The notes under the pieces: model-generated
The model's input: only the letters and a program-made list of their open reading frames with translations
Databases searched by the model: none
Told to the model about the DNA's origin: nothing
Shown here: positions 6,901 to 60,749 of the stretch, one piece after another
Layout of the letters: every line of letters starts with the position of its first letter
Position numbering within the stretch: position 1 is the first letter of the stretch
Source of the DNA: a virus
IMG/VR virus record: IMGVR_UViG_3300033182_001391
Coordinates: 7,141 to 71,140 of that record
Length of the DNA stretch: 64,000 nt
Direction: 5' to 3' (one strand)
Program-made: the position numbers and the translations under genes

Positions 6901-9426
6901 AGGAAGGGGCTCAGACATTATCTCTTCAGGCTGATTTAAAGTAGCAGTAAATGTTGCTGAGCATGAGAAGTTTACCTTGACATTGAATCTTGATGCCTTC
7001 TCTTCAGGAACAGCAACATAAGAATAAGAAGAAGAAAGCTTAAAGGGATAAGACTTAAACGAATTTAAAACGCCAATATTATTTGAAAGAACTGCATTAC
7101 CAGACGCACTTACCGGCTTAGTCAGAATAGTATAAGGGCCCATAGAAGAAAGGACACGTAGAATAGGGGATCCCTTAGTAGTATACGCATAAAGTTTTTC
7201 ATCGTTATCATTCATCTTCCAAACAGTATAAGAAGACGGTATATCTTCTTCTTCTATTGCTAAGTCATTACTAATCAAAGTCGAATTATAAACTTCAACA
7301 TCTGGATTAGTAGTCTCTATATACATCTCTATGGTGTCAACATTAGTAGCTATTTTATCTCTCTGATAATCTGGGAGAATTTTACTTAATTCATTTTTAT
7401 AGAAATCAAGAATAGTAGGATAATCTTTAATCAAATCTCTAGCGTAAAACTGACTAGAAGAATTACTAGAAACATTTACATACAATTCCTCTCTTTCATC
7501 ATCTAAAAGAGCATCATTGTTCATCACCCAAGAAGAATTCCAATCCGAAACAAAATTGTATACAGCGGATCGGGTATCTATAATTCTACTTGAATGTGCC
7601 TTACAGTATGTCGCATACGCAGAAATGTTAAACAAAAGCTTTAGGGGACCCTCAACTACACCAGAGTAAAAATTTCTATCCTCGGTATCAAGTGAACTGT
7701 TACCATAGTTACTGTTCAAGGGCTCTTGATTTTGAGAAGTTGAATAAATAGAGTTACAGTACTGCAAGAAAGGGAAAGTAGTTGCAATTATATTTCCTCT
7801 GGAAATCCTATCCGAAGAAGTTATAAATGGAAGCAATGTGCCTATAGATGACGCAGCTGAAGTCTCATCAAATCCTGAAAGTATAAAAGAATTCTCAGAA
7901 GAAGAAAAAGACCTGTATCTACGATACACGGGATCTCCAGTTCTAGCAGTATTAGAAGAACCAAATATCCCATAATACGGTTGATCAAAAGCCGTGTCAT
8001 TAAGATTCCATCCACCACTTTTAGCTGAAGATAAAATTGGAGAAGTTTCACTCATGATAATGTGATTACCAGGAATCGTATCTCTTTCAACCTGCAAGAA
8101 AGAATCCAACTCTGTTGCGTCTGCATCACCCAAGCTTAAATCTAAAACAACAGTTCCATTATTCCTTAGAAATGTAGTTAATTTATTAGCATGAACTTCA
8201 CTTATTTTAAAATTTGGAGACCAAACAAGAATATCATAATCCCTTAAATCATCTACAGTATCTATGTCAACTTTCCAATAATCAGCCAGCAAAGTATCAT
8301 CTAAGTCTGAATTTGGATTTACATATCTATACTTAAATAGATTAAAAGGAGATTTCTCAAGCCTCTGAAAAGCGTAAGGATTGATTACACTATTGGTTTT
8401 CTGATTAGAAGAACTATAAAGAACTCCAGCATTGACAGTTCTTAGGGCCAGCAGATCTCCGTCTAATTCGTCGCCAAAATCAATTTCATCAAGATTAATT
8501 GAAAGCCTAGACTTAGCTATAAGTCTCCAGTTAAAAATCTCATATGTTCTATAATCAGAAAAACCTTTTGAAGGAGAAAAAATCTGATAACCACCAGCTA
8601 TATTGGAACTATCAACTAAAGTACTATATTTGTCATTAACTTTCTTTAAAGAAAAAATATTTTTGTTATAACTATTTTTATCTACTACAGTACTTTCTTC
8701 TGGAACCTCGCTCATGTAAGGAACTGCATTAACCGTCTCAGCATAAGCCAGCTCTTGGCTAAATATATTTCCATACTCGTCAGAGTCTACCTTATCATAA
8801 ACAAGCTTTAAATTAATTGGTGGATCTGCATTAAAAAATACAACTACTCTACAAGGTATTTCGTTTCTTGAATAATTATTTGAAGTTTTAAATGGCTCTA
8901 AAAGAATTCTATACTTTCTTTTTCCAGAAATAGTGTCTAAATACTCAAAGCCTTCAGAGTCAATAACTTTAATTGAGAGATCTGACAACTTGTCTGGATC
9001 AAGAAAATCTCTATCCGAGGAAGGACTAAAGAATGGAGGAGCTGAGATGAAATATCTACTAACATACTTATAGTGAATAAAATCATTTACATCGACACTA
9101 TCGACATAAACACGCTGAGTGGTAAATGCTTCTGTTAGAGGAACATTTGAAATTGTCAAATCATTGGAATAGAAATTATAATTTCCATCAAGCCTATGTA
9201 GAACACCTAGCTCATCAGCGTAGGCTAAAACTTTTTCTCCAGATATACCATTACCAACCCTATTTTCCTGTATTGAAGTAGATATATCTATGAAGCTAAG
9301 AGAATTTCCTGCAGTTATCTCTTCCGAGTTAAACCAAGCCAAGCCTACGGAATTATCGGGAACATTATTTCCTATCTTAACCGCTTTTTCTTTCCCATCA
9401 GAAGTTAAGTTAACAAACTTTTCCAT
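3928..9426 (-). CDS. Large baseplate/peripheral virion protein with an internal peptidoglycan-binding domain (1832 aa)
   Basis: PG_binding_1-like motif YIQYTL..DGFYGPQTANGIRQFQ..IDGIVDSET at about 6550-6740; start overlaps the upstream stop. Confidence 0.72.
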   Translation of the reverse strand: MEKFVNLTSDGKEKAVKIGNNVPDNSVGLAWFNSEEITAGNSLSFIDISTSIQENRVGNGISGEKVLAYADELGVLHRLDGNYNFYSNDLTISNVPLTEAFTTQRVYVDSVDVNDFIHYKYVSRYFISAPPFFSPSSDRDFLDPDKLSDLSIKVIDSEGFEYLDTISGKRKYRILLEPFKTSNNYSRNEIPCRVVVFFNADPPINLKLVYDKVDSDEYGNIFSQELAYAETVNAVPYMSEVPEESTVVDKNSYNKNIFSLKKVNDKYSTLVDSSNIAGGYQIFSPSKGFSDYRTYEIFNWRLIAKSRLSINLDEIDFGDELDGDLLALRTVNAGVLYSSSNQKTNSVINPYAFQRLEKSPFNLFKYRYVNPNSDLDDTLLADYWKVDIDTVDDLRDYDILVWSPNFKISEVHANKLTTFLRNNGTVVLDLSLGDADATELDSFLQVERDTIPGNHIIMSETSPILSSAKSGGWNLNDTAFDQPYYGIFGSSNTARTGDPVYRRYRSFSSSENSFILSGFDETSAASSIGTLLPFITSSDRISRGNIIATTFPFLQYCNSIYSTSQNQEPLNSNYGNSSLDTEDRNFYSGVVEGPLKLLFNISAYATYCKAHSSRIIDTRSAVYNFVSDWNSSWVMNNDALLDDEREELYVNVSSNSSSQFYARDLIKDYPTILDFYKNELSKILPDYQRDKIATNVDTIEMYIETTNPDVEVYNSTLISNDLAIEEEDIPSSYTVWKMNDNDEKLYAYTTKGSPILRVLSSMGPYTILTKPVSASGNAVLSNNIGVLNSFKSYPFKLSSSYSYVAVPEEKASRFNVKVNFSCSATFTATLNQPEEIMSEPLPGEDTSPNCFSFRSALDDLGQGREANTSSPSNIFPYTGDIDLGNKTAIWTNGNSGDYATYIQYTLWTYKNITGRNFYPYPLDGFYGPQTANGIRQFQQQEGARYIDGIVDSETKWLMARFWKNAKENHRPSYDQSVNAAPSQVNDRVRNFILAAASTVTADKINIKDNYRKITFTGTTGPSEGVDYIYFSIPTHLETVNRIVIEGVDGWTNFKVAEYGLSSSGGNDRGSYRVTNTTLNISGSKIAIDINGPGSQNRFGYIKLVGGSLGSKYGRAEGFGIKRIKAEGITNGVPSQGTGEFEDNESPVSVDLIFDVRNIPVNGIVEIGAEQRVRVGTNELIKRFDNSDYSLNITGLSYGGRTYGLDFDVYDILNGREIFVQINNRDTIKLKLNESTFSHSRSRPSAVKNGVFTVSKVTTPTNQLIWSSDSIGVSPVGVTNIANGTTYVTGVLGTSEIYFADADVVSVSRDLSSGYSLRSFKDEGLIYKDGRKDVTVNDGVMLLCNSAGRPFGLPSASDIAAAAVDNIDDQGDLRFGSFIVSNETSEEGLVYGFYDINEKEFLGKNIQYIDFVRRGVGNIFIGVCAIDADGNTQNDNEFIGPVVDTTFRPVQVPVKYIAPVYSISINTPSSIGIGNFSKDISRFETWELPVKSGSFKKKVLFNRSYNLGSWEDNYLNQELLAEYSTVDLSTGSWSKIYGYGNYDVYDESPIIMDERKIRVRRAPILSWNHPTNYFSSVFGIVKPEFSISIRDSIFDNWVEIPYSDVRDVNCETGVIELKEAKIPSDRKLIKISYTTKNKSSMVRHINGSSIPINPVLNYEDIFFDTPMYVYILPKDLYKRSYGSSVLETNAGVYEQVTDYSPSSIINYTWDYTLFDSSSKDYNPLAIPMAIVYVLSRPRNTPPSLLDIRIKGGGVSQDRTNYELLNDIPEVLSNWDVYSAQGEAYSKGGYVIIRIPEEVRDNFIDDQEIYSVISNNLTAGIAYDLQDMNGNTWS

Positions 9427-12400
9427 TAGCTATCCTCATAGTCTGGATGTAAATTATTGTAATCAGTTATCTGATTAGGAGTCGAACCCAAAATTCCTAG
9501 CTGATATTGATCATATCTCCTAATTGGTATCCAATCACTAGGAATCCAATTAGGAGTTGAATCAGAATAATAAACTAAATCAGGGTTGCTATGATCATAA
9601 ACAAATGATGGTGTTGACAGCATTTGGCTTTCACTATCTAAATCAACCGTAAAGACCGAAGACATCGGAAGCAATTCGTTGGTGTAATGCAAATTGTCAT
9701 AAAGCTCATGCCAGTAAACAACATCTCCCGATATAGTAACATCAGAAGCTGTTAAAACCTCACCATTAGACTGCAGCAAACTTACCACAGCTGCGGGATC
9801 CTTAAGCTCAACTCTAACAAATCTTAAACCAGGATTCAGATTATTATTTACAGTTATTAAGTCATTCAGGTAGAATGTACCATCTGGATTAGTTGTAATT
9901 ACTGAAGGTGTCGTATCGGTAAACAAATCTCTGTAAGAAGAATTCTCATACCAATACAACTCTATTTCCTCCTCAAGAGGTCTATCATCCCAATAAACTC
10001 TACCAGCCACAGTTACATCAGATTCTCCGTCAGCATCAAGGGAAAATCTTACCGGAATAGCTTTTATCTTTAACCTAAAATTATTACCCCTAAGAATATT
10101 ATAATCTACAGTTTCAAGATATCCTTCAGAACTACTATTGGGTCCACCGTTCGGAGTTGCAGAACCTATACCCTCTATCGTTATTGTATCCTGTGCCACC
10201 GTAGCTGGAATTGCACCAGAGTACCTAATTACACTATAGCCGAATCCATTATCGTTAGTAGTTACAAACTGAGGTGTTGCATCTATATTTGAACCATAAA
10301 TTTTGAAAGTTTGACCTGGCTTTAAATTGTTATTTTCATCATAAGAGACTAAAGAAAGATTCATATAATCTTGAACGTCATCCTCTATGTAGGCCGGCGA
10401 TAATATTGGCTCCACATAGCTAAAGTTAAAGCTATCGTTAGAAACGTAAACAAATCCTTCGTGAAGAGGATTGTCAATTTGATCTATCTCTAAATCAATA
10501 GATCTAAGAGAATCTTTTTTACTGGTTTCATAAGTAATTTCATATGAAGAAGATAAAGAAGGTGTGGATGAGAAGTAGATTATTGAATTGTACTGATCAG
10601 ATGAATCATCATATACATCGGGATCAACAAAGAAAGAATCTTCAACTTTGTAAGAAACTAAATACTCTCTACCTTTTACTGCAGGTGTACTAGAATCAAA
10701 TGGTGTTATAGTTGAATCCTGACTACTCAGGCCACTAAACAAAACAGTATTATTGTAAGCATCCGTTACTGTGACGTCTGAGATATTTTGATATGCCAAG
10801 TAGAGAGAGTTACCCTCATTGCCATAAACTGACTCTAGGTTATAGAAGCTATGCTTTCCAGGAGTAGCCGAATCTTCAAAAGCAACATTTCTATATTCTA
10901 CACCGTCAACATTTGCTATAACAGGAGCACTAAGAATAGGTGTCTCATCTAATGTTAATGAGAAGAATTTGCCTGTTTCATTTTGTGTATTAGAAACAGA
11001 ATATATATACCTATCTTCTTCGCCGTAATATATCCAACCTGGATTTAAGGCTAGCTTATATGGCTCCTCTTTGAATGCCATAAACGAAGATGTTGCCTGC
11101 TCGCTGTTCTCTATTGCATAATTTAAATCGGAAACAACTTGCGCAGGATTATCTATAGCAACTCTTACATCTACATTGTTACCATATATTTTAATATTTT
11201 CTATAATATGCTCAAGACTATCATTTATACCAAAATCATTTGCACCTAACAAATATTTATCTATTAGATTATCCTTATTAAAGAATACGTTAGTTAACTC
11301 TTCTCCGTCCCTGTAGGCATTCCCGTAACTATCCATAAATCCACTAAAGAATGGATTGTTAGTTGTAGCAGAGAAGAAGTCGTAGTAAAGATATCTTAAA
11401 GGATAAAAATCACCGCTAGCAGACTCTAAAGATAGATAGTCAACACTTCCATCATAATCTATCGTTGCCGATTCAAAATAATCCTGGCCAACAACAACTG
11501 AGTCTGAAGAATCATACTGCGTAAACACAATGTTTGGAGAAGAAGGAATAAAATATATGTCTTCATCATTTGGATCTTTTGCAACACCGCCATAAGTATA
11601 GATATCTAATTCATTATTATTTTTTGTGTAAACAGTATTCTCACTAACATTAAAATAAATATCTTGCGGAGTAGCAGAGGATGGATAAACAATATAATCC
11701 TTAAGACTTTGAACCTCTAACACTGAAGGTGTAGCTGAAGTAGAAGAAAAAGTATTTCCAGAATTAATAATTAAAGAATCTGAAAGAGTATCAGTATAGC
11801 GAATGGTTGGCGTTGAGTCATATCTATCAGAAACTAAAAGAAGATTAACATTATAGCCATCTATATTAGGACTGGCTATAGAAATAGCGGATCCATCACC
11901 ATCTCTATAATTTGGTGTTGACTCATCAAAAGAAATCTTGTAATCATTTACCCCTACTGAATCATAAACTTGAGCAATAGCATTCCACGCTTTAGCGGGA
12001 ACAACCCTAATTTCGTCGGCATCAGTTATCGCTATTCTTGTAGAATTAGGTGTAGATAAAGTATTTGAATATTGCTGATTATAAATCTTGTCTCTAAATA
12101 CTATTGTATCCTCAGTTACACTATCTGCTCCAAAAATTTTATAAGATATATACTCTGGGCTAGCTGAACTATTTTCAGGATAAAGATTTTCTAAAAGTAA
12201 AGATGGATCATCTTCATACGTAAAGTTAGCGTAGAAGGTAGATGGAGTTGCATAATTGTCGTGAGATTGAAGATCAATCTCGTAAACGAATGCTGCACCT
12301 ATTCCATCGGTAGGCAATATGGAATCGTAGATATCTACAGAGCCACCATTAGGAGAAGCATATTCGTCATCGCCCGGACTACCAACCACAAAAGTACTTG

Positions 12401-15275
12401 CATAATCTGAAAATGAAAAACTATTACCAAAACTAGTTGTAGTTTCACTAGATACAGGACTCAGTCTACCAACCTCTGTAATTGTTTTATCTTTATCGTA
12501 AGAATAAACATAGACATCACCATCATCTAAAGCAGTTCCTACAGCCAAGGTTCTCTTATCATTAGATATGGACACATAACTTCCAAAACCGTCATTTAAT
12601 GAAGAATCTTGCGGAGAATACTTTAATTTTTCTATCCACTCAAACGTAGATCCATCATTAGAACTATTAACAAAAACAGATATATAACCCGTTCCTGGAG
12701 TAGCTACATCATTTTCATTTGCGCCAACCAAAAGATAAGAACCATCATAAGAACAATCAACTGATATGCCAAAGTAATTCTTATCACTTATAGAATCAAC
12801 AACAATCTCCTGCTGATTCAACCACTCAACTGCGGTATCAGGATACTTAACTGAATTAACGTCATACACATATACAATTCCAGTATCTGAGCCAGACTGA
12901 TAATCAAAATTTGGAGCTCCAACAAAAACCTTAGAAACATCATCGGCAAGAGCTATACTCCAACCAACATCATCACCAGCAGAAGTACCAGATGGCACAG
13001 TTGCACCATCGTAGACCCAAGAAGAACTTAAATAATAGAAGCTATGGAAAGCTCCACCAATAATTGATGCATCTTCCCATGCAGGAGATCCAACAACAAC
13101 AACATCACCATCATAAGAAATATCTAAACTAAATCCGAATAAAGAATCTTCTTGAGAAACAGCTGGAACAAGATAGTCTTCGTAAGACCAGGATCCACCG
13201 CTATATCTATAAATAAATACCGCACCGGAATTTACAGCGCCGCCGCCAAAAATTGCAGCTGAACTATTATACGGGGAACCGACCGCTATCGTTAAGCCAT
13301 CACCAGAAATAGCTATAGAGTAGCCGTAAAGGTCATCTTCTGCGGCTCCAGCACCACCATTAACACCGGTCTGATCTAGCTTAGCGACCTGCGTCCATGT
13401 AGAACCAGATCTATTGAAGACATAAACTGCCCCCACACCTTCAGTGTCAATATTAAGAGGAAAACCAGTAAGCTCTATATTAGCCTTATAAGAAGATACA
13501 ACTAAAGTATTTCCATCTCTAGATAAAACGGTTTTGTATCCAAATTGATCTAGAGCATCTATATCATCGCTCGTTAGATCAATTTGACTTGAAGCAAAAG
13601 TTTGAACAACATCTTTCTGGGCATCCAAGTCGGCAACATTTATAAGATAAGACATATACCAGGAGTAGTTGACAACAATCGGCATGTAGGCATCGCTGTA
13701 ATCAACTTCTTTCAATCCAGTTACTTCAACATATCCATTAAAAGAAACAGTTGCAGCCGAGTCGTCTTCAATATCTATGTAAAGCTTTGCATCGTCGAAA
13801 TCTCCAACCCCAGGCTGATAATCGGAACCAAGAGGAGAAGCATCTTCATCGTAAACAGATGGAACTCTAGAAATACCTTCTCCTAATAAGCCACCGTAAT
13901 CCCAGTTGCCCTCCTCCCATTTAACATATCCGTAATTTGCTGGATACCTTTCATTCAATGATGTTACAAAATCTTTAAAAGCTTTTTGTGGTTTACCTGA
14001 ATTAGAAAAATAAGGACTTGAACTTTCTATGTCAGAAATTTCTAAGATTTCCGGCGTAGCTCCAAGATAATTGGAATCAGGAGTAGATCCATATGCTCTC
14101 CAAATATCTAACTCTCTTCTGAGAATAAGCTTAAGACCTTCCAAATTAGATGCTCCAGGATTCGCAGCTGCATCTAATATTCTCTTCTTAAAAGAGGAAT
14201 TGGATTCAAGATATAATCTAGGGAGACTTACCCTTGCACCAAACTCATCGAAATCATTAAATATATTTATAGCTTCTTGTTCAAAAGAAATACCATTAAC
14301 AGTAAGGGTATCAAAACTTCTTATTGAATACAGCCTCTTATTTAGGGGATCATAATAGTACGCATAATCTTCTTTTCTAAGAGAAACAAAATCGTTGAAA
14401 CTAGATACAACAGCAAGAGATACACCATCACCCTTAACGCTACTTATATTAGGTGGAACATTATAACTTACATATATCCATGCCAACATATCTTCGTCGG
14501 CACTATTAATAAATGCGTTGACTTGCTCTGTATCAACATTCCTTTGAAAATATTCAAAATTATCTTGCACTAAAGCTGTTAAAAACTTACCGCCCTCAGA
14601 CTCTGGTACATCTAAAGCTGGTGTTGCTGAGTCTTTAGAGTCAGAAAAAAGAGCTGTCCAACTAGGAAATCTCTTTAAAACATTCTTAACTCTTCTAGTG
14701 CTAACCGGAGATACTGGATCATGAATTCCAACCTCAAGATAAAAAACTAAACCAACAGAACTCAAATCGGCTTCATCGGAATTAATAACTAATTCAATTT
14801 GCACATATGGCTTAACATCGGTAATAAATAAAGTTCCTATTTCACCGGAAGCAACGTTCTTCAACCATGGACCATCTGCTGAATCAGACTCATAAATATT
14901 TATTTGAAAGTTAGGAGCAGTAATACCCTGAAGGTTTGTAAAAGTATATTTATAAGAAAGTATATCTATCTCCGAAGAAGTATCAACAAACCTTAATATA
15001 CTAGGTGTAGCAGAATCGTAAACAACTTCACCAAAATCAGTTACATACACAGCATTACTATCTATAGGCGTTGCGTGATTCCCAGCTGTATTAGGGGAAG
15101 CTATCTCTGTACCGGAAAAAACTCTTGTACCAATAAGATCTAAACCAGTAGAAAACCTGCTGTAAGAAAAGTTTTTATACTGATCATTAGAATACAGATT
15201 TATAGAAGAAGAACGCCAAACATCATTACTCTTAATGAAGTCGCCACTTCTTAAAGTATATAAATACTGCTTCAT
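9426..15275 (-). CDS. Baseplate wedge protein (gp7/P2 gpI-like core) with inserted FG-GAP beta-propeller and Ig-like domains (1949 aa)
   Basis: Follows baseplate J. Wedge-type motif FDEFGARVSLPRLYLESNSSFKKRIL; repeated FG.s..is.DG..l.VG.P / GaVyvf blades at about 12325-13590. Confidence 0.75.
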   Translation of the reverse strand: MKQYLYTLRSGDFIKSNDVWRSSSINLYSNDQYKNFSYSRFSTGLDLIGTRVFSGTEIASPNTAGNHATPIDSNAVYVTDFGEVVYDSATPSILRFVDTSSEIDILSYKYTFTNLQGITAPNFQINIYESDSADGPWLKNVASGEIGTLFITDVKPYVQIELVINSDEADLSSVGLVFYLEVGIHDPVSPVSTRRVKNVLKRFPSWTALFSDSKDSATPALDVPESEGGKFLTALVQDNFEYFQRNVDTEQVNAFINSADEDMLAWIYVSYNVPPNISSVKGDGVSLAVVSSFNDFVSLRKEDYAYYYDPLNKRLYSIRSFDTLTVNGISFEQEAINIFNDFDEFGARVSLPRLYLESNSSFKKRILDAAANPGASNLEGLKLILRRELDIWRAYGSTPDSNYLGATPEILEISDIESSSPYFSNSGKPQKAFKDFVTSLNERYPANYGYVKWEEGNWDYGGLLGEGISRVPSVYDEDASPLGSDYQPGVGDFDDAKLYIDIEDDSAATVSFNGYVEVTGLKEVDYSDAYMPIVVNYSWYMSYLINVADLDAQKDVVQTFASSQIDLTSDDIDALDQFGYKTVLSRDGNTLVVSSYKANIELTGFPLNIDTEGVGAVYVFNRSGSTWTQVAKLDQTGVNGGAGAAEDDLYGYSIAISGDGLTIAVGSPYNSSAAIFGGGAVNSGAVFIYRYSGGSWSYEDYLVPAVSQEDSLFGFSLDISYDGDVVVVGSPAWEDASIIGGAFHSFYYLSSSWVYDGATVPSGTSAGDDVGWSIALADDVSKVFVGAPNFDYQSGSDTGIVYVYDVNSVKYPDTAVEWLNQQEIVVDSISDKNYFGISVDCSYDGSYLLVGANENDVATPGTGYISVFVNSSNDGSTFEWIEKLKYSPQDSSLNDGFGSYVSISNDKRTLAVGTALDDGDVYVYSYDKDKTITEVGRLSPVSSETTTSFGNSFSFSDYASTFVVGSPGDDEYASPNGGSVDIYDSILPTDGIGAAFVYEIDLQSHDNYATPSTFYANFTYEDDPSLLLENLYPENSSASPEYISYKIFGADSVTEDTIVFRDKIYNQQYSNTLSTPNSTRIAITDADEIRVVPAKAWNAIAQVYDSVGVNDYKISFDESTPNYRDGDGSAISIASPNIDGYNVNLLLVSDRYDSTPTIRYTDTLSDSLIINSGNTFSSTSATPSVLEVQSLKDYIVYPSSATPQDIYFNVSENTVYTKNNNELDIYTYGGVAKDPNDEDIYFIPSSPNIVFTQYDSSDSVVVGQDYFESATIDYDGSVDYLSLESASGDFYPLRYLYYDFFSATTNNPFFSGFMDSYGNAYRDGEELTNVFFNKDNLIDKYLLGANDFGINDSLEHIIENIKIYGNNVDVRVAIDNPAQVVSDLNYAIENSEQATSSFMAFKEEPYKLALNPGWIYYGEEDRYIYSVSNTQNETGKFFSLTLDETPILSAPVIANVDGVEYRNVAFEDSATPGKHSFYNLESVYGNEGNSLYLAYQNISDVTVTDAYNNTVLFSGLSSQDSTITPFDSSTPAVKGREYLVSYKVEDSFFVDPDVYDDSSDQYNSIIYFSSTPSLSSSYEITYETSKKDSLRSIDLEIDQIDNPLHEGFVYVSNDSFNFSYVEPILSPAYIEDDVQDYMNLSLVSYDENNNLKPGQTFKIYGSNIDATPQFVTTNDNGFGYSVIRYSGAIPATVAQDTITIEGIGSATPNGGPNSSSEGYLETVDYNILRGNNFRLKIKAIPVRFSLDADGESDVTVAGRVYWDDRPLEEEIELYWYENSSYRDLFTDTTPSVITTNPDGTFYLNDLITVNNNLNPGLRFVRVELKDPAAVVSLLQSNGEVLTASDVTISGDVVYWHELYDNLHYTNELLPMSSVFTVDLDSESQMLSTPSFVYDHSNPDLVYYSDSTPNWIPSDWIPIRRYDQYQLGILGSTPNQITDYNNLHPDYEDS

Positions 15276-15301: not shown

Positions 15302-16471
15302 TTAGTAAGTACTGTTGCCTATTATAACAGAGAAAACACTTATATTTCCAGCCGCCAAGTATTCCCTAACTCCAGAAGGAGAAAAATCTTTTAGCGGCAC
15401 CTCTCTACCATCTGCGGTCATAGAATTAATTGTCACACCCTTAATAATATCTGAAGACAACTTAACCTGTCGCTCTATTTCATTTAAAGAAACAGAATCT
15501 CCTATAGTTAAAGAATTCAAATATCTTTTAACAAAAAGAGATGATTGATTCCTAACGCCTTGAATAACACCAGAAGTATTTCCAGAAGGAAGTGTAATCG
15601 TTATATTTAGACCAACACTAACCTTTTCTGCAACTGAAACATTAAACCTAATCCCAACAGGCTTGACAGCATTTATGGCAGCAAGAACAGCTTCAGGCAT
15701 TCTCTTTACCGAAGATCCAACTTCCGGAACAACAATAACATCACAAGAACCTATCCCAAAAGAAGCCTCACGAATACGAACATCTTTTACACCGGAAACA
15801 GAAAGTGCAGCAAACCTCACCGACTCTGCGGTACCAGCAACTCTAGTCTTCATAGAAGCAACTATTCTCCTCCTATAGTTGGCATCTGACTCAGCAGAGA
15901 TGTTTGCGTAAACTTCTTTAGGGTTTGTGCAGAAAACTATTACAGAAGGGGCAGCAACATAATTATGCTTAGTTAAGGTCCCCTTTGGTGCAACATAGGT
16001 ATTGTTATTAAAATTGGGCTGAACTCTACCGTAAGCTTTTGTTGAACCTGCTGGTATTGTTACGGCCTCCTGCAAAGAATAGCTATACTGTTTAGAGGCA
16101 AAATTTGTAACATCATTATAGACAAGAGTATTAGCTGGAATAACAACAGAAGTACTATGAGGCTTAGAAAGATAAAACTCTATGTTAAATGATCTTCTCT
16201 CAGTAGCAACCTGATCACTTACACTCTTTCTACGAACACCATACAAATCTCCTATAAGATCCAAATTTCTACCAGAAGCCGTAGAAAGATCAGATTGACT
16301 TACAGTAAACCTAAAAGCCTCATATAAATCAGAAACTTCATCACTGACTGCCTCAGCAAATGCTCTAGCAACAGAACCAGGATGAACGGCAGTAATACTA
16401 GCATTCTTTTGTAGGCCATCAAGAATAGAGACTAAAATTTCAGACTTACTTTTTACACCATAAATACTCAT
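15302..16471 (-). CDS. Baseplate J-like (gp6-type) wedge protein
   Basis: Motifs ASGRNLDLIGDLYGVRR, ESDANYRRRI, AGTAESVRFAALSVSGVKDV, VKPVGI. Confidence 0.9.
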   Translation of the reverse strand: MSIYGVKSKSEILVSILDGLQKNASITAVHPGSVARAFAEAVSDEVSDLYEAFRFTVSQSDLSTASGRNLDLIGDLYGVRRKSVSDQVATERRSFNIEFYLSKPHSTSVVIPANTLVYNDVTNFASKQYSYSLQEAVTIPAGSTKAYGRVQPNFNNNTYVAPKGTLTKHNYVAAPSVIVFCTNPKEVYANISAESDANYRRRIVASMKTRVAGTAESVRFAALSVSGVKDVRIREASFGIGSCDVIVVPEVGSSVKRMPEAVLAAINAVKPVGIRFNVSVAEKVSVGLNITITLPSGNTSGVIQGVRNQSSLFVKRYLNSLTIGDSVSLNEIERQVKLSSDIIKGVTINSMTADGREVPLKDFSPSGVREYLAAGNISVFSVIIGNSTY

Positions 16472-46585: not shown

Positions 46586-46595
46586 AAATCTCCTC

Positions 46596-48702: not shown

Positions 48703-49575
48703 TTATAGCGAATTTGGTGTTGCACCCTGGAAAAGATCCGTTTGAGTAAAAGAAATACTACCATCAATAGCAGAAATATCTGGTGTCGCGGCATTGCTCG
48801 CAACCCAAAGTCTAATATCGCCAGAAATATTTTGAATCACGTTATTTCTAATCGCAAAAACCTTTTCAGTTGTTAACATGTATGTAACAGTTCTTTTATG
48901 AATATCTTTTCCATCTCTATTTATTTCAGAATCAGAAAGTCTCCTAGAATAAACTAGATCTGAGGCACCAGCTGCTTTGAATATGGGTGTAAATTCTAAC
49001 ATGAAATCTTCAAAAGCTTCAATAACTTCATCACACAGAACAGCTGCATCTAAATCATCTCTAGTTGTAGTGGTGTTTTCTCCTTGAAAAGTACCAACTT
49101 TAGACATAATTGTGAAGCCAACTATATTTTGAAACTTTTGACCATAGATAGTATATTCATTATTTATTACATTCTGGCGCATTCTTGGCTTTGGTTCTGT
49201 AGTGTGGCTTTTACGAAGCTCTAAAGAATATCCTATTATTGCAGGGTATTCATCTAGACTAGATGTACCAGTAAAGCTGGGACTATCAGCCGAATTTGAA
49301 ACAGAAGAAGTTATATTTGCTGAATCGCCAGAAAAACTGTAAGTAGAAAAAGCTTCCCTATTAGCTGAATAAGGAAACATTGGAATATTAGGATGGCTAT
49401 CTTCCCATATTTTTTTAACCATTAAAATAAATTCTAGATAACTTAAACTACCTGTTTGAAAAATCTCTAAATTATTGTTTATATACCCAGGAGAAATTAA
49501 AACTGGCTCACTTAAAATATCAGGCCAACTACTGTTAACATTATCTATTGGAAAATTTCTATTAATATAAGCCAT
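48703..49575 (-). CDS. Putative tail terminator/completion protein
   Basis: Position just before the sheath; YGQKFQNIVGFTI...IEAFEDFMLEFTPIFK..G.SDLVY pattern. Confidence 0.55.
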   Translation of the reverse strand: MAYINRNFPIDNVNSSWPDILSEPVLISPGYINNNLEIFQTGSLSYLEFILMVKKIWEDSHPNIPMFPYSANREAFSTYSFSGDSANITSSVSNSADSPSFTGTSSLDEYPAIIGYSLELRKSHTTEPKPRMRQNVINNEYTIYGQKFQNIVGFTIMSKVGTFQGENTTTTRDDLDAAVLCDEVIEAFEDFMLEFTPIFKAAGASDLVYSRRLSDSEINRDGKDIHKRTVTYMLTTEKVFAIRNNVIQNISGDIRLWVASNAATPDISAIDGSISFTQTDLFQGATPNSL

Positions 49576-49576: not shown

Positions 49577-51169
49577 TTACACCGCCGGACCAGCTGAGAG
49601 TGAGAAGTTAATATTCTTCAAACCCAGTGAAGATAGTACATCTACATAAAATATTAACTCACCAGGATTATCAGTTCTCTTAGTTATATTTAAAGAATAA
49701 TCTGAAATAACATTATTAAATTTTAAATCATTCAAAAAATCAACAGACTGACTTTTTACCTTATCATAACTAAAGCGACCGATAGCCCCTTCAGCAAAGA
49801 ACTTTATTTCACTAACTATCCTTGCTACAAGTTTCATCTGAGCAAGTTTGTGAAGAGAAGAAGATGAATGAGACAACGTATATTCATTGGAAACATAAAC
49901 CTCAAAAGGAACAGAACGACGAGTTTTCTTACCTCGATAAATAGTATTTATACCATAAGAGTCCAAAAGATTGTGCTGTTCTTGAGTTAGATCTAAACCA
50001 TATAGAGACATGGCCTCAGGAATTCTTTTTCTAACCAACGACTGAGACAGGCTTGCCGCAGCGCTCATGCCAGCAATAGCTGCAACTGGCGAACCTATAT
50101 ATGATCTAAATAGATGGGGATGTTTAAATACAACTTCACCATAAACAGGAACAACAAATCTACCATTATCACTAGTTATTTGATTACCAGAAAAAGTAGT
50201 TAACTTATTTATCAATACTGAATTAGATTGTATAGAATCTATATCTGCAGAATTGACTCCACCAGATCTGGATCCAATGAACCCAATTTGAACATTACCA
50301 GTATAATTATGAAAATCTGTACAATAATTAGCTAGCTGCGAAACAAAGTCAACATCACCAGTATTTATAATAGAAGTTTCTAGCGGAACAACAATATCTA
50401 CAAAATCCAAATCTTTTATAAAAGAATATGTCGTTTCTAACCTTTCATAATATTTCTCATAAAAAGTTTTCTGCGCAGGGCTAATTTCATCGTACTCAAA
50501 AGCAGAAGTCGAAACCAATCTATTCTCAAAAAGATTAACATACTCATTCATTCTTGCAACAGAACAAACAACTATATCCCTAGCACCTGCTGCATAGGCG
50601 TCAAATACACCCCTTAGTAAAGGAGAGGAATCATCTGCACCAAGAATATCAACTGCAGACTGAACACTAGGTATTCTTACGGGCTCATTTAAAGGAAGAT
50701 TATTTGAGTGACCCAACAACAATATAGTTGAAGTATTAGACTTATTTACCTGGTCATAATTAGCCCTATAATTTACAACAGTATTAGAATTATTAGAGAT
50801 AACAACAGGATTTAAGGAAACAGCCCCTTCATTTACTTGAAAGAAAGATTGAATTTCAAGAGACCCATTTTCATCAAACGTATTAGCTAAAACAGAGTAC
50901 TTACCCTGAAAAAGTCCATTAGGAACCTTGTAATTAAAAGTATATTCTCCGCTTGCAGAAACTTCTATATAAGTATCACTATCTGGAGTAGAAGGCTGAG
51001 AAAGATACGAATAAGGACCATCAATAACAGGACCATTACCCATCTCACCACGAATAATATTAAATCTAACATCAACAGGTGTAGCAGCATTAACTGGATC
51101 GTAAACTACACCATCTCTAATAAACAAAAATTTAAACGATGCAACAGATCCTCTTTGAACAGTAAACAT
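49577..51169 (-). CDS. Second sheath-family protein with N-terminal Ig-like domain
   Basis: Sheath-like motifs LLRGVFDAYAAGARDI, GINTIY, LAQMKLVARIV..IGR; about 110-aa beta-sandwich N-terminus. Confidence 0.65.
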   Translation of the reverse strand: MFTVQRGSVASFKFLFIRDGVVYDPVNAATPVDVRFNIIRGEMGNGPVIDGPYSYLSQPSTPDSDTYIEVSASGEYTFNYKVPNGLFQGKYSVLANTFDENGSLEIQSFFQVNEGAVSLNPVVISNNSNTVVNYRANYDQVNKSNTSTILLLGHSNNLPLNEPVRIPSVQSAVDILGADDSSPLLRGVFDAYAAGARDIVVCSVARMNEYVNLFENRLVSTSAFEYDEISPAQKTFYEKYYERLETTYSFIKDLDFVDIVVPLETSIINTGDVDFVSQLANYCTDFHNYTGNVQIGFIGSRSGGVNSADIDSIQSNSVLINKLTTFSGNQITSDNGRFVVPVYGEVVFKHPHLFRSYIGSPVAAIAGMSAAASLSQSLVRKRIPEAMSLYGLDLTQEQHNLLDSYGINTIYRGKKTRRSVPFEVYVSNEYTLSHSSSSLHKLAQMKLVARIVSEIKFFAEGAIGRFSYDKVKSQSVDFLNDLKFNNVISDYSLNITKRTDNPGELIFYVDVLSSLGLKNINFSLSAGPAV

Positions 51170-52454: not shown

Positions 52455-52826
52455 TTACGATGTTGGTATTATAGTAACGTCTACTGTACCAGCTGAATTT
52501 TCTTCCAGTACAATTGTTTCCGCACTAGTTATGGCATAAGCTTCTTCGTCTAAAACGCTGAAAGCTATATATCCACTATCATACGTCTCAAAAGTCATTG
52601 ATGACGGGCTAATAGTATTATCAACTACACCAGTTGAAATAATAACTTTTGTAGCGTCAACAAAAACTAAAGTAGAACCAATAGTCTCTGGAGATAAAAG
52701 TATTACTTTTAATACTTTGAAATCAGTTACAACAGAAGTGGGACCAAAAGAACTTGGCTCTACAACCCTTACACCATTATACTGAAAATACGGCTCATTA
52801 TACGTTACTGCTTCACTATAAAGCAT
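52455..52826 (-). CDS. Hypothetical virion protein (123 aa)
   Basis: Beta-rich ORF in the neck/fibre cluster. Confidence 0.6.
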   Translation of the reverse strand: MLYSEAVTYNEPYFQYNGVRVVEPSSFGPTSVVTDFKVLKVILLSPETIGSTLVFVDATKVIISTGVVDNTISPSSMTFETYDSGYIAFSVLDEEAYAITSAETIVLEENSAGTVDVTIIPTS

Positions 52827-52841: not shown

Positions 52842-54644
52842 TCAGAATGTACCGCAGTCGATAGTTATACCGTCAAAAGTAGTAAGGTTAATAATACTGC
52901 CGCCAGTAATGTTCACATTATTAGCATTCTGAACTGCAATAGTGCCAAGGCCAAGAGTTGTTCTTGCGGTTGCAGCGTCAGCGTCATCCAAGAGAGTTCT
53001 TGCATAAGCCGTCATAGTTGTAAGGGCGGCAGTTCCACTACCTGTAAAGTATGGAAGCTGATCAGCAGCAGATGTAAGACCAGCAATTGCTGCTAACTCA
53101 GCGTCGTAAGCCTGTACATCAGTTCCTATTGCTAACCCAAGATTTGTTCTAGCCCCCGATGCAGTGGTTGCACCGGTGCCACCGTAAGCTATGGCGACTT
53201 CAGTGCCCTGCCAAACACCAGTTGCGATAGTTCCAACTGAAGTTAGACTAGAATTAACGACACCAGAACCGAGAGTTGTAGAACTAAGAACTTCAGTAGT
53301 ACCAATATGATAAGCTTTACCCGAAGCTAGATCCATATGCTCAGAAGATGTCCACGAATCTGACGCATCAACCCAGTTGAAAGTCTTATCGGTTGTACCC
53401 TTTAAGGTTAAACCGCCGCCATCGGCAGTAGCGTCCGACGGGGAAGCCGTTGACCCTAATTCGATGTTCTTATCGTCAACAGTAACAGTAGTAGAGTTAA
53501 CTGTAGTGACAGTACCGTTAACAGTTAAGTCTCCACCAACAACAAGATCATTTCCGATACTAGTTGTTGAAGTAGCTGAACCAATGTTTATCGCAGTTGC
53601 ACCAGTGGTAAATATGTTACCAGTTGCAGAAGTGGTTGTAATATCACCACCATTTACCGCTGCATCACCGGTAAGTGTAATATTGACAAATGTGGGACTA
53701 GCCCCAGTATGAATATCCTGAGGAGTAGAAAGCGTTACCGCACGTCCCTCGGTGCCAGCACCAGAAACAATAACTTGATTAGTTGTACCCGCAATAGTCG
53801 CAACATAGTCGCCAGTTGTTTGACTAGTAAGATTTACATTAGAGATACTTACCGCACCGCTTGATACAGAAAAATCGCTAGAATTAAACGAAGCCACACC
53901 CTTATTTGTGGTGCTAGCATCTTCGCCAGAAATTGTGACCTTATCGATACCAGTAACACCATCGGTAGAAACTACAGTATCAATACCTTCACCAGCTTCA
54001 AAAACTAAACCTTCAGTCAATAGATCAATAGAACCACTACCAGACTCTCCAGAAAAATCTAGCGTAGTAGCAACTGAAGCTGTACTAGCAGCAGTTAGAC
54101 GTCCCTGCTGATCAACCGTAAATGTAGGTATCGCGGTCGAAGAACCATATGAACCAGGCGTAACCGCAGTATCATCCAAATCTACGGTAATAGTGTTTGT
54201 GCCACTAGCAGTTGTGGTTAAGCCGGTACCACCAGCAATAGTTACAGTTTCCTCATCGTCTACCGTCTGAGTAGTTCCACCATCACCAGCAAGATCAAAG
54301 GTATATGTTGCAGTTACTATTGCGCTATCAACATAAGCTGTGGTTGCAACAGAAGTCGAATTATCTCCAGCTGTCTGAGTAGTGGCTGTAGCTGAAGAGC
54401 CAAGGGCAACTGTTCCGGTAAATGTCTTATTACCAGAAATGGTCTGATTCGTTGCAAGTGTAGCGAAAGCACCAGAGCCACCAATGGCCTCTACGGTAGT
54501 AGCAGTGCCGCCTGTACCACCAGTACCCTTACCATAATAGAGTACGTCACCTACTTCATTAAATGCTAACTCGGCGTTCTCGAGTGAACTAGGTGCACCT
54601 GCAACACCGCTAGACCTTCTTTTAATTCTAATTGTATTAGCCAT
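52842..54644 (-). CDS. Head or neck fibre protein (T/G/S/A-rich, 600 aa)
   Basis: N-terminal TIRIKRR..APSSL..AELAFNE anchor; fibre motifs [11 protein letters not shown] and [17 protein letters not shown]; ends IDCGTF. Confidence 0.75.
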
Positions 54645-54993: not shown

Positions 54994-55404
54994 TTACAAA
55001 CTAAATATCTTAGTAGCTAGGTCGCTCCACTGTATAGTAATAGAAATAGTCTCATTAGTGCTATTAACAGGTAACCCGTCAGCTGTGTCTATATATGCTA
55101 TCAATCTAGAAGTAGATGATAAACCACTATCTTGATATATAATCAAATAACTAAAACCGCTAGTTCCATAATTTTCTATAGTTTCATTTTCCGCGTCAAA
55201 CACACCATCATCAATTGTTATTTGCTCTAAAGCAACAGATGTTGCTGCAATATTAGAAGCGCCCACATCAGAAAGAAACTCATGATTAACCAAATCAACA
55301 ATGTAAGTACTTTTAACTAATGCAGTCTTTAGAGAAACATTTAAAAGATCTAAATCGGCTCCAAGAAAAGCTTCTTTAGCTTTGGCATAAAGAGCGTTAG
55401 CCAT
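54994..55404 (-). CDS. Virion structural protein (136 aa)
   Basis: MANALY..K..L....DL / LIAYIDTADGLP / ITIQW pattern typical of small phage structural proteins. Confidence 0.65.
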   Translation of the reverse strand: MANALYAKAKEAFLGADLDLLNVSLKTALVKSTYIVDLVNHEFLSDVGASNIAATSVALEQITIDDGVFDAENETIENYGTSGFSYLIIYQDSGLSSTSRLIAYIDTADGLPVNSTNETISITIQWSDLATKIFSL

Positions 55405-56183
55405 TATATACCCACCTCCGAAGAAACAATCACACGATACTTGTAGCCTGTTTCGAAATAAGTTTTTCCATCAACATAATAAACCGGAGTAGAATCATTA
55501 GAAGGAAAATCTACATAAACATCAGGCTTCCAAGAATGCATCGAAATTGCAGGAGATAAGCTCTCCCATCTAGAAGGAGCTTTTTGTATTTTCTTTCTCT
55601 GAATTTTAAAGAACTTAGAAGTTAAAAAGTTAGATGCTGGACGTGAACTAAAAGTTATAATAACTCTACCATTATTTTCATCATTATTTAAATAAAAGTC
55701 ACCATTAGTTGGTGTAACTTCTTCAATATAAAAATTAGGGTTCTTAGCTATAATTTGATAGCCAGTTTCAATATCTGCCCTAATAGACTTATCTTCTATT
55801 AAAACTTCATTTATAATAGTTCCCGCATTCTGCGTCTCCTGAATATAAGAAGGAGTAGCGGAAGTGGTTGAACTAGTAAAAGTAATTTGCTCTTCAGGAA
55901 CAGATATCCCAGAGGCATCGACAAGATTATTGATCTTTAAAACATAATCGGTAGCAGGAGAAAGAATATTATCCCAATACAAAGTCAATACACGACTTAC
56001 CTGATTATAATCAGTTAATGTATCTATCGGCCTAAAAGGAGATACAACTTCTACAGGGGTAGCCTCATCTGTAAAGACGGTAAAAGAACTATCTTTAATA
56101 GAAGATATTTTTATAGTTCTACCAAATTTTATCGTTACCGTGTTAACAGTAACAATAGCACTGTCTACAAGAAAAAGCGCCAC
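55404..56183 (-). CDS. Virion protein with two Ig-like domains (259 aa)
   Basis: GTG start with GAGG RBS; VTIKFGR..VLTLY..LSPATDYVLKINNLVDASG (Big_5-like). Confidence 0.65.
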   Translation of the reverse strand: MALFLVDSAIVTVNTVTIKFGRTIKISSIKDSSFTVFTDEATPVEVVSPFRPIDTLTDYNQVSRVLTLYWDNILSPATDYVLKINNLVDASGISVPEEQITFTSSTTSATPSYIQETQNAGTIINEVLIEDKSIRADIETGYQIIAKNPNFYIEEVTPTNGDFYLNNDENNGRVIITFSSRPASNFLTSKFFKIQRKKIQKAPSRWESLSPAISMHSWKPDVYVDFPSNDSTPVYYVDGKTYFETGYKYRVIVSSEVGI

Positions 56184-57406: not shown

Positions 57407-58177
57407 TCAGAGTGTGAGATTGACGCGGAATGCACCAATCACGTTGTGTACGTCCAGGTTTGAACGGATACCGAGCTTACCGCTGTAAGTACCACTGCGT
57501 GTGAGCTCATACACCGTCTTTAGTGCACCTGGATCAGATGGAAGCTGCATGTAGCTGAGAAGGCCGTCATCAAAGTTCGTAGCGAACTTCTCGACCTCGA
57601 TGACCTTACCAACTTGCAAGTGTGAGTAAACGGCGCTGCTGTTATACTGTTCTGCTGGGGTCAGCTTAACAGGACGACCCATATGGTCAGCACGAACTGC
57701 ATCACCGATAGCAATATCTGCGTTGAGGCCATCAACCATCGGATACTCTACGTAACCGTGAGTGATAAAGCCAGCACCTTGCGATGTACCCTTATCAAAT
57801 GGTCTGTAGAGATCATACTGAGCGCAACCGATTGGAACTGAGCGAGCTGCAACAGTTACTGTATCAGTTGAACCACTAGTGCTGGTGGGTGTCGCACCGT
57901 CAACTGGATCCCAACCGCTCATTGTATCGCCCCAAGATACAGATGAAGCTGTACCATTAGCTGGGACGACTCTTGCATCGCCGTTTGAATCGGCAACGAC
58001 TGAAAGAATGGTACCTTTTGTGATGACGATCTCGAAACGATCATCCTCACTGTCGTAGTACCAAGTAGGAAGACCCTGGTCAGGAAGCAGGTATGCGCTG
58101 GGGGCAACACCCTCAGAAACAACAAAGCGACCTGAACCCGTCTTGCTATGTACTTTACGGAACTTTGCTAAACTCAT
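57407..58177 (-). CDS. Capsid decoration/minor head protein (256 aa)
   Basis: Between scaffold and MCP; same codon bias; IVITKGTIL..VVPANG..PIGCA beta-rich pattern. Confidence 0.7.
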   Translation of the reverse strand: MSLAKFRKVHSKTGSGRFVVSEGVAPSAYLLPDQGLPTWYYDSEDDRFEIVITKGTILSVVADSNGDARVVPANGTASSVSWGDTMSGWDPVDGATPTSTSGSTDTVTVAARSVPIGCAQYDLYRPFDKGTSQGAGFITHGYVEYPMVDGLNADIAIGDAVRADHMGRPVKLTPAEQYNSSAVYSHLQVGKVIEVEKFATNFDDGLLSYMQLPSDPGALKTVYELTRSGTYSGKLGIRSNLDVHNVIGAFRVNLTL

Positions 58178-59903: not shown

Positions 59904-59936
59904 TTAACTATCCTTCTCATATTGGTTAACCATTCT

Positions 59937-59974: not shown

Positions 59975-59981
59975 TATGAAT

Positions 59982-60749
59982 TTATACTAATTGATACACA
60001 TTCTTTCTTCTGTCACCAGTTTTCTTGAAAGATTCATACATTAAAGGCGACATAATATGAGGTGCATAAACATAAGAAGCGCAAAATAGCTCATATCCCA
60101 GCTTCCTACAATTCAAAGACCAACCAAGATCCTCACCCTGAGGATGAACCTCGTAATCAACAGTCTGATAAACCTTCTTACTCATCATTTTTGCAGCCAT
60201 TATCACATCAGACTTAAAATAAGTTCCCAAAGGATAATCCTTCTTCCTATATCCCCTATTGCTAGTTGAATCTCGCCAAGTCATGACACTAGGAAAATTA
60301 GTGCCAACAGGAGTCATAAACATTAAAGGATTGACCGCATCGGCACCCTCTTTAATATGGGCGATAAGGAGTTCTAAAGTATTAGAATTTTTTAAAAGAA
60401 TATCTGAATCTAAACTAAAATAATAATCAGGTTCCAACTCTCTAACTTTAGAAAGAACAGAGTTTCTTAGATTCACCATATTAACATACTTAGAAATAGT
60501 CCACTGACGACCATTATCGGTATGCTCAAAATGGGGAATATCTTCCCTGCAAACTATATCAAAATGAGGAATTCTTTTATCCAACTGCTTCCAAGCATTC
60601 AGCTTATTTACAGTCTCGTCATCATCTGGAGAAGTTTCAAAAACAAAACCAATATTAGACAAACTCAAAGATTGAGCAAGAATAGATTGAATCCACTCAT
60701 CTAATATCCAACTTCTCTTATAAATTGGACACCCTATAACAAGTTTCAT
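59982..60749 (-). CDS. GT-A fold glycosyltransferase (GT2-like)
   Basis: N-terminal LVIGCPIYKR, LRNSVL, DxD motif YYFSLDSDILL, GEDLGWS, C-terminal His (APHIM). Confidence 0.85.
   Translation of the reverse strand: MKLVIGCPIYKRSWILDEWIQSILAQSLSLSNIGFVFETSPDDDETVNKLNAWKQLDKRIPHFDIVCREDIPHFEHTDNGRQWTISKYVNMVNLRNSVLSKVRELEPDYYFSLDSDILLKNSNTLELLIAHIKEGADAVNPLMFMTPVGTNFPSVMTWRDSTSNRGYRKKDYPLGTYFKSDVIMAAKMMSKKVYQTVDYEVHPQGEDLGWSLNCRKLGYELFCASYVYAPHIMSPLMYESFKKTGDRRKNVYQLV

Follow-up and report, generated by a model that had tools for sequence, protein, structure and literature searches.

An [A/S]-T-P tripeptide enriched in a giant baseplate protein of uncultured jumbo myophages, and a glycosyltransferase that may read it

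Very few cases of protein glycosylation in phage virions are known. In mycobacteriophage Che8, both the capsid and the tail tube are reportedly modified. According to the account relayed in PMC13445384, Che8 itself encodes the glycosyltransferases that modify its virion (Freeman et al. 2023, Cell Host Microbe). A literature search on phage virion glycosylation, Thr-Pro O-glycosylation sequons and relatives of phage 0305phi8-36 found descriptions of neither an [A/S]-T-P sequon nor glycosylated phage baseplates, and it found no defined acceptor sequon for any glycosylated phage virion, the full Che8 study lying outside its reach. Here we describe a 64,000-nucleotide stretch of viral DNA (the window), bases 7141-71140 of the 71-kb IMG/VR record IMGVR_UViG_3300033182_001391, which is estimated to be 34% complete. 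In this window the tripeptide [A/S]-T-P (the motif, or [AS]TP) is concentrated in a 1949-residue baseplate protein, and the head module encodes a putative glycosyltransferase (GT) of 255 residues. As with Che8, a phage-borne glycosyltransferase gene lies near the structural genes, and virion proteins are the proposed O-linked targets. An original prediction, made from the letters of the window, had proposed the tripeptide as an acceptor sequon by which the phage coats its virion with glycans.

From its genes, the window is identified as part of a jumbo myophage genome. Its clade is a large environmental one, with hundreds of uncultured relatives; the 255-residue GT is encoded on 228 viral contigs, some of them 190-202 kb in length. 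The large open reading frames (ORFs) of the window are all on the minus strand, with a G+C content of 32-45%. Its major capsid protein (MCP) is 38-44% identical to those of the Bacillus phages 0305phi8-36, Edson, WH1 and KLEB27-3 and of the Moorella phage MTATph1.

A tripeptide concentrated in one baseplate protein

The main carrier of the motif is a 1949-residue protein of the baseplate wedge or periphery (9426..15275, minus strand; the wedge protein below), which matches FG-GAP_2 and phrog_21059 in family searches. Its baseplate context is fixed by the adjoining gene, which encodes a Baseplate_J-like wedge subunit of 389 residues with 0 motifs (15302..16471, minus strand; PF04865 at E=3e-13 and phrog_6 at E=1.3e-38) and directly downstream of which it lies. 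Sheath-like genes are found upstream, and the same neighbourhood recurs in the relatives G005, G008 and G009. A weak homologue in 0305phi8-36, ORF162, carries the annotation of a low-copy virion protein, which depends on a single peptide of reduced confidence.

The wedge protein contains 11 ATP and 9 STP tripeptides (plus 5 ASP), where 0.94 [AS]TP would be expected from its composition, and none of 2000 shuffled sequences reaches 20 motifs. ATP and STP rank 1 and 2 among its tripeptides (Poisson P of 3.7e-14 and 2.8e-8, respectively). The dipeptide TP is present 23 times against 5.3 expected, with A or S preceding it in 20 of the 23 cases. Every motif count of the original prediction, for this protein and for those discussed below, was reproduced, and the excess that it had proposed to compare with shuffled sequences is borne out.

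The 20 sites, all encoded on the minus strand, are ATP68 (15066-15074), ATP89 (15003-15011), ATP217 (14619-14627), STP397 (14079-14087), ATP406 (14052-14060), ATP858 (12696-12704), ATP1009 (12243-12251), STP1074 (12048-12056), STP1119 (11913-11921), STP1154 (11808-11816), ATP1181 (11727-11735), ATP1201 (11667-11675), ATP1470 (10860-10868), STP1529 (10683-10691), STP1570 (10560-10568), ATP1666 (10272-10280), ATP1706 (10152-10160), STP1887 (9609-9617), STP1906 (9552-9560) and STP1931 (9477-9485). Their codons vary from site to site, which together with the shuffling result rules out a DNA repeat or an artefact of composition. Codon variation combined with conservation of the motif also agrees with the earlier claim that selection acts on the protein. 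The signature of a repeated domain, with one motif per immunoglobulin-like (Ig-like) domain at a spacing of about 90 residues, was considered and ruled out, as the spacings run from 9 to 379 residues and several motifs can fall in one domain. The Bacteroidota sequon D-[ST]-[AILVMT] was also ruled out, since only 5 of the 20 sites fit it (read as D-S-A or D-S-T).

The enrichment is a property of the protein family. A homologue search gave 176 wedge proteins at E<=1e-10, and motifs were counted in the 120 that were listed. All 120 carry [AS]TP, with 7-26 copies each and a median of 18 against 0.93 expected, and the enrichment persists among them down to about 30% identity. The lowest counts are those of P0079 (7) and P0091 (9). 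Among the larger records of the clade, the wedge protein has 18 motifs in G003 (0.98 expected), 22 in G005 (1.47 expected), 18 in G008 (1.05 expected) and 23 in G009 (0.92 expected), while the split gene of G001 gives 15 and 4 (0.74 and 0.29 expected). The proteins of G005, G008 and G009 are 33-50% identical to the query from the window over the best-aligned N-terminal segment.

Individual sites were followed in an alignment of the query and every second listed homologue (60 of the 120, giving 61 sequences and 5661 columns). At 17 of the 20 query sites the motif is present in at least 23 of the 61 sequences, while sites 858, 1154 and 1181 are lineage-specific. At residue 217 both T and P are found in 61 of 61 sequences, and at residue 1470 the motif is found in 58 of 61. 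The relatives also have additional sites at which the query reads ASP, SSP or something else. The 61 sequences hold 1087 motifs over 85 alignment columns, 721 of them in majority columns, and the number per protein stays steady while some of the sites shift, a form of turnover.

At the 14 majority sites, where at least half of the 61 sequences carry the motif, the frequency of the major residue is 0.84 for T and 0.89 for P, whereas the flanks lie at 0.46-0.67 and the mean over the whole alignment is 0.55. The position before the Thr (-1) is A in 463 cases, S in 250 and T in 54. Where T is replaced at these sites the substitute is most often S (46 of 116), and in two conserved columns E or D stands in its place. 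Pooled over the family, the context of the motif reads [DE]-[SG]-[AS]-T-P-[NS], followed by hydrophobic residues that are enriched at +3 and +4.

Other features of the wedge family were seen along the way. Its central part is hypervariable, and the FG-GAP_2 beta-propeller region (residues ~560-1000) is an insertion present in few homologues. PF14312 is recorded on P0001, P0060, P0073 and P0075 among the 120 listed. The split gene of G001 consists of ORFs of 525 and 961 residues.

Residues 1000-1949 of the wedge protein were modelled with AlphaFold2, with a mean predicted local distance difference test score (pLDDT) of 78.9 and a predicted template modelling score (pTM) of 0.33, as expected for a multi-domain chain. 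The model is a string of Ig-like beta-sandwich domains, and Foldseek matches it to invasin, intimin, FN3, macroglobulin and other Ig-like arrays. In this model 13 of the 14 motif Thr residues lie in coil, compared with 26 of the 52 other Thr residues. The earlier expectation that the motifs would map to loops therefore holds in the predicted structure in so far as loops are read as coil.

The motif in other virion proteins

The original prediction had also presented the motif as virion-wide, and this is overstated, as the signal is mainly that of one protein. Pooled over the other 34 proteins of the window, the 9 copies of ATP exceed the 3.0 expected (P=0.004) and place it 20th of 5254 tripeptides, and the 4 copies of STP, with 4.05 expected, show no enrichment. 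The part of the claim that stands is the presence of conserved sites in the wedge, Ig-like, presumed decoration and 290-residue proteins and at two sites in the sheath-like proteins; the MCP and fibre sites and an enrichment of STP outside the wedge fall away. Conservation in these proteins was followed in 80 loci around the GT gene and 57 loci around the gene for the 290-residue protein, with ORFs assigned by blastp at a coverage of at least 60%. The proteins whose sites are given in this section are all encoded on the minus strand.

An Ig-like protein of 259 residues encoded after the MCP gene (55404..56183; weak Big_5 match) has three motifs where 0.22 would be expected. Across 45 aligned sequences with a mean identity of 69% all three are conserved, ATP41 (56055-56063) in 42, ATP109 (55851-55859) in all 45 and STP231 (55485-55493) in 44. 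The 290-residue virion protein encoded between two sheath-like genes (48703..49575; phrog_20284, virion structural protein) has two, in an alignment of 58 sequences with a mean identity of 54%. ATP263 (48781-48789) is kept in 54 of these, and ATP285, near the C terminus at residues 285-287 of 290 (48715-48723), is kept in 49 of 58, with ASP in 5 more. The label of tail terminator given earlier to this protein was confirmed by no family search.

The two sheath-like proteins each combine sites of different conservation. In the 413-residue protein (47352..48593; tail sheath PHROGs), ATP141 (48165-48173) is present in 49 of 49 aligned sequences and is flanked by gapped columns, while ATP2 (48582-48590) is found in 4 of 49 and is not conserved. 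In the 530-residue protein (49577..51169), ATP29 (51077-51085) is partly conserved (35 of 58), and STP60 (50984-50992) is not conserved (7 of 58, with 3 more one column off). A further column of this protein carries the motif in 37 of 58 sequences, where the query has ISP. The presumed decoration protein, of 256 residues (57407..58177), has a single site, ATP95 in the context DGATPT (57887-57895), which is present in 62 of 62 aligned sequences; this carries little weight because the mean identity is 83.5%.

For two proteins the motif was not retained by relatives. The HK97-type MCP of 352 residues (56317-57375; identified in family searches) has ATP275 in the context SGATPA (56545-56553), which is found in 13 of 53 aligned sequences with the query included, and 40 of its 52 homologues have no motif at all despite a mean identity of 92%. 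Judged from the alignment, the MCP motif is probably not part of the system. The 600-residue fibre (52842..54644) has STP306 (53721-53729), found in 2 of 12 aligned sequences, and 7 of its 11 homologues are without any motif; this site probably arose by chance.

Elsewhere the motif is rare or missing. The 3667-residue hub has one, and none is found in the portal or the 568-, 2188-, 1607-, 1832- or 869-residue proteins of the window. Taken together, the other giant virion proteins (1832, 3667, 1607, 2188, 978 and 869 residues) have 1 motif against about 4 expected. Among homologues, the motif is present in 0 of 71 portal proteins and 0 of 79 GT proteins, and it is absent in all homologues of the 112-residue, 123-residue (52455-52826), 222-residue, 259-residue (45830-46609) and 306-residue proteins. 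The 301-residue protein is motif-free in 23 of 23 homologues from the GT loci and in 48 of 52 from the loci around the 290-residue gene, and the 568-residue, 136-residue and 123-residue (51172-51543) proteins each show a single motif in one or two homologues. On these alignments, about five unrelated virion proteins keep the motif at conserved positions, and it is not a general property of the virion.

Family searches of the window give two sheath-like proteins and several giant tail proteins, and some of the remaining genes also merit a description. The adjacent paralogues of 259 (45830-46609) and 222 (46656-47324) residues both match phrog_9206 and phrog_34314, with the PHROG label 'major head protein'. 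Both come after the sheath, however, which points to duplicated tail-tube-like proteins. Neither has the motif, nor do 48 of 48 homologues. Downstream of the wedge gene, the 1832-residue protein (3928-9426) has a PG_binding_1 domain (residues 917-954) and a weak endolysin PHROG match, with no [AS]TP. Upstream of the portal, an ORF of 208 residues (63280-63906) combines a domain of the Peptidase_S74 type (endosialidase intramolecular chaperone) with tail-fibre PHROG matches, and it looks like a C-terminal fragment of a fibre placed outside the tail module. Divergence within the same set of phages is uneven, with mean identities of 92% for the MCP (52 relatives), 83.5% for the decoration protein, 68% for the GT and about 40% for the wedge protein.

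The head-module glycosyltransferase and other candidate enzymes

The candidate enzyme is a protein of 255 residues (59982..60749, minus strand) assigned as a GT-A fold glycosyltransferase of the GT25-N-terminal or Anp1-like, PF13704 type, with a DxD motif at D114-S-D116. The genes run from a Mu-like portal (61065-62708, minus strand; identified in family searches) through a 105-residue gene to the GT and then a 568-residue gene, and the order is the same in G005. No family search confirmed the label of protease given to the 568-residue protein, a presumed protease or scaffold. The AlphaFold2 model of the GT (pLDDT 91.6, pTM 0.91) is a single Rossmann-like alpha/beta/alpha GT-A fold, and Foldseek returned at least 500 matches at E<=0.001, every listed one of them a glycosyltransferase. 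The top matches are COLGALT1, LH3, Mimivirus R699, TarP, SpsA and Mnn9, and the best of these, COLGALT1, LH3 and R699, are protein O-glycosyltransferases.

Sequence comparisons point the same way. Residues D114, D116, E206, D207 and H231 are invariant in 46 of 46 aligned GT homologues, the DxD aligns with the DxD region of COLGALT1, and a GT profile matches residues 52-146 of COLGALT1 at E=1.1e-8. PF13704 was not listed in the scan of the window, yet it is precomputed on all 120 listed GT homologues, the protein of the window included, and the nearest Atlas clusters are viral and named "GT25 N-terminal", again with PF13704 precomputed. No NCBIfam match was found for the protein. From the model, we are confident that it is a GT-A fold glycosyltransferase; its catalysis is putative. 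The enzyme class and the place in the head operon that had been proposed for this gene are thus upheld, with the gene following the portal and the 105-residue gene.

The 105-residue Ala-rich gene itself (60751-61068) has no family match. It is far less conserved than its neighbours, with 8 homologues passing the coverage filter among the 80 loci.

A test of whether relatives that lack the GT also lose the motif had been proposed, and the comparison is possible with one outgroup. A tblastn search with the 255-residue GT against 50,697 GenBank phage records gave no match at E<=1e-3, and a GT profile search of the complete genomes of 0305phi8-36, Edson and Moorella phage MTATph1 gave no match at E<=1 in any of the three. 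As a positive control, the same profile finds the distant environmental relatives G005 at 3.6e-97 and G006 at 5.6e-94. The wedge homologues of the outgroup have 0 motifs in 0305phi8-36 (ORF162, 372 residues), 0 in Edson (536 residues) and 1 against 0.68 expected in MTATph1 (1363 residues). Six query sites can be aligned to the outgroup; sites 217, 397, 1470 and 1529 fall in gaps and 406 and 1570 are substituted, which indicates that the motifs are add-ons of the environmental clade. On this alignment, the motif at the alignable sites is a clade-specific insertion or substitution. The motif therefore does not persist in the outgroup without the GT, in what is a single clade-level contrast.

Within the clade, environmental relatives with the head module on the contig all carry both the GT and the motif, and no record was found showing a head module without the GT. 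G007, G008 and G009 have no GT match and no portal match, and G008 and G009 are without a head module beside the tail genes; absence of the GT from these three records is uninformative because the locus lies off the contig.

The records of the clade also encode other enzymes that could act on the motif. Genes for prolyl-4-hydroxylase (P4H)-like 2-oxoglutarate-Fe(II) (2OG-Fe(II)) oxygenases (PF13640) are found in 5 of 6 large records, with 2 in G001, 2 in G002, 7 in G003, 8 in G008 and 1 in G009. G005, which is 90% complete and has 22 motifs in its wedge protein, has no PF13640 match. No Pkinase family match was found in the 5 relative records searched.

PF13640 genes form clusters of up to 8 (G008:C1:12776-23751; G003:C1:185691-197977; G009:C1:145004-145312) and lie directly upstream of the tail module in G008 and G009, and both G001 and G002 have two PF13640 genes with a GT2 gene no more than a few kb away. 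G005, which is the most distant of the relatives that bear the GT, has a canonical GT2 gene (G005:C1:2545-2826; a 368-residue ORF) about 3 kb upstream of the portal, besides the head-module GT at 8014-8802.

What may read the motif

The reading that we favour, tentatively, is that [A/S]-[T>S]-P would be a short linear motif that the clade has set between the strands of its giant baseplate protein, in about 20 loops, and in one to three loops of the Ig-like head, 290-residue tail and sheath-like proteins. One trans-acting factor would read it across these unrelated proteins, and a single such reader seems likely because unrelated proteins acquired the same tripeptide independently and have kept it as the residues around it changed. 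The reader may be a cytoplasmic GT-A glycosyltransferase of the phage, which would attach an O-linked sugar to the Thr and take its specificity from a small residue at -1 and Pro at +1. Defined glycans would thereby be displayed on selected parts of the virion surface, chiefly at the periphery of the baseplate. Transfer to the Thr hydroxyl would make a GT the most economical reader because these phages are rich in GTs and without kinases and because the central residue tolerates Ser. The 255-residue head-module GT would be the best-placed candidate, not the sole one. Reading in trans by a phage GT with O-glycosylation of Thr is a real possibility, short of a probable one, in which we infer the modification, its nature as a sugar and the enzyme. 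The fuller version would give this widespread clade of aquatic phages a cytoplasmic, sequon-directed O-glycosylation system of its own, in which the head-module GT-A enzyme itself reads [A/S]-T-P in surface loops, setting about 20 glycans on each copy of the baseplate protein and a few on the Ig-like head, sheath and 290-residue proteins, the sequons having been inserted into loops as the clade evolved. It would amount to a coat of glycans that a bacteriophage can program genetically. This version is more doubtful.

Several points weigh against O-glycosylation by the head-module GT. Any chemical modification of the motif is putative. The motif excess outside the wedge protein is weak to modest within the window, and 3 of the 14 modelled sites fall within the low-confidence C-terminal 90 residues. 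The GT scores 20.4 bits against PF00535, under the curated cut-off of 23.3. In PMC12003778, the GT1 domain of COLGALT1 is reported to bind UDP-galactose and Ca2+ and to be non-catalytic, and as this domain is the closest solved sequence relative of the phage GT, sugar transfer cannot be assumed. Canonical GT2 genes elsewhere in the large records (5 in G001, 3 in G002, 3 in G003, 4 in G005, 2 in G008 and 4 in G009) mean that the head-module GT is not singled out, and an enzyme of the head module with mainly a baseplate target is not an obvious arrangement. The link between GT and motif is also one phylogenetic contrast, and many other genes separate the same two groups. Finally, 9 of the 14 modelled motifs lie 1-4 residues ahead of the next beta-strand, a regularity that would also suit a purely structural motif of strand entry.

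This last point leads to the view that the motif is intramolecular and marks the passage from loop to strand in beta-sandwich domains, with Pro as a gatekeeper of the strand edge, Thr as the donor of a Ser/Thr (ST) turn and no reader in trans. The position of the Thr in coil in the model is as it would predict, as are the hydrophobic residues at +3 and +4 and the mostly fixed positions in the family. A generic turn, however, would not be expected to require A or S so strictly at -1 or to recur as the same tripeptide in non-homologous proteins, the other giant virion proteins are depleted rather than enriched, and the homologous segments of the Bacillus and Moorella phages fold without the motif, being gapped or substituted at 6 of 6 alignable sites. 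Reading in trans is preferred over a folding requirement because of the recurrence in unrelated proteins, the drift of the flanks, the loop insertions relative to the outgroup and the near absence from other giant proteins, and we consider the structural explanation fairly unlikely. A docking or assembly motif, in which the loops would serve as non-catalytic binding sites for a partner such as a cement, decoration or fibre protein or an assembly chaperone, draws on the same recurrence, conservation islands and clade-specific insertions as trans reading by an enzyme. All carriers of the motif are virion parts that touch other virion parts, and a baseplate protein is a natural contact hub. Three residues by themselves nevertheless provide very little energy or specificity for binding, a docking site repeated about 20 times in one chain over many different domains would be unusual, no candidate reader protein was found, and tolerance of S for T at the centre suits a hydroxyl acceptor at least equally well. 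Docking is, on balance, unlikely.

Another covalent modification is also conceivable, either phosphorylation at Ser/Thr-Pro or hydroxylation of the Pro by a P4H-like 2OG-Fe(II) oxygenase of the phage, after which the hydroxyproline might be glycosylated. Hydroxyproline is glycosylated in plant [A/S/T]-Pro glycomodules and in Skp1. The 1-8 copies of PF13640 in most of the large records, in two cases directly upstream of the tail module, would fit such a route, COLGALT1 and LH3, the best structural relatives of the GT, glycosylate a hydroxylated residue, and E or D in place of T at two conserved columns can mimic a phosphate. On the other side, no Pkinase match was found in the five records, the motif-rich G005 is without a PF13640 match, any link from the oxygenases to proteins is hypothetical, and the interchange of T and S with P as the most invariant residue does not separate the options. 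Such a modification we regard as improbable. Chance, composition or a DNA-level repeat would be compatible with the weak MCP, fibre and hub signals, but it is refuted for the wedge protein by the shuffled sequences, the varied codons and the enrichment in every listed homologue, and as a general explanation it has next to no probability.

If O-glycosylation directed by the tripeptide is correct, a simple transferable tag and a small soluble enzyme would be available for site-specific O-glycosylation in the bacterial cytoplasm. Phages would be shown to tune the baseplate surface with glycans, be it to shield it, to adhere or to gain stability, and the retention of a GT inside an otherwise canonical portal-protease-capsid block would be explained. 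Should the motif instead serve in docking or in structure, it would still be an unusual and clean case of a short linear motif in a phage, with its enrichment of about 20-fold, its conservation in all 120 listed homologues and its insertion into loops that the outgroup does not share.

Several known systems offer partial parallels. COLGALT1 (GLT25D1), the GT domain of LH3 (PLOD3) and Mimivirus R699 share the GT-A fold and DxD, give the best sequence or fold matches, and all belong to protein-glycosylating systems. Against the collagen hydroxylysine GT group the Foldseek match reaches E 7.8e-17 and a template modelling score (TM) of 0.72, with an identity of only 15-17%. COLGALT1 and LH3 act on hydroxylysine in collagen repeats in the endoplasmic reticulum (ER), whereas the phage GT is a single-domain and presumably cytoplasmic protein. 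Other systems also recognise a Ser or Thr acceptor in an extended loop by a short consensus around it. Bacteroidota O-glycosylate at D-[ST]-[AILVMT], and among mucin-type N-acetylgalactosamine (GalNAc) transferases there is a preference for Thr-Pro, with Pro at +1 favouring some O-GalNAc transferases. The Bacteroidota system is periplasmic, however, while tailed-phage virions assemble in the cytoplasm, and the GalNAc transferases work in the eukaryotic Golgi and come from a different GT family.

Chloroviruses (PBCV-1 Vp54) and giant viruses use viral GTs rather than the ER machinery of the host to glycosylate virion proteins, at sites that are not canonical host sequons. The phages described here would resemble them in encoding a putative cytoplasmic protein glycosylation of their own. 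Those systems belong to eukaryotic viruses, with N-linked capsid glycans in chloroviruses, whereas here a bacteriophage would carry O-linked Thr at a tripeptide concentrated on the baseplate. The Che8-type actinophages are closer in being phages, yet the tblastn search across GenBank phage records detects no homology between their GTs and the one described here, and the host group and the phage type, here a jumbo myophage, are different. The main putative target differs too: in this clade, as far as can be read from its genes, it would be a protein of the baseplate, in which a tripeptide sets about 20 internal sites in loops.

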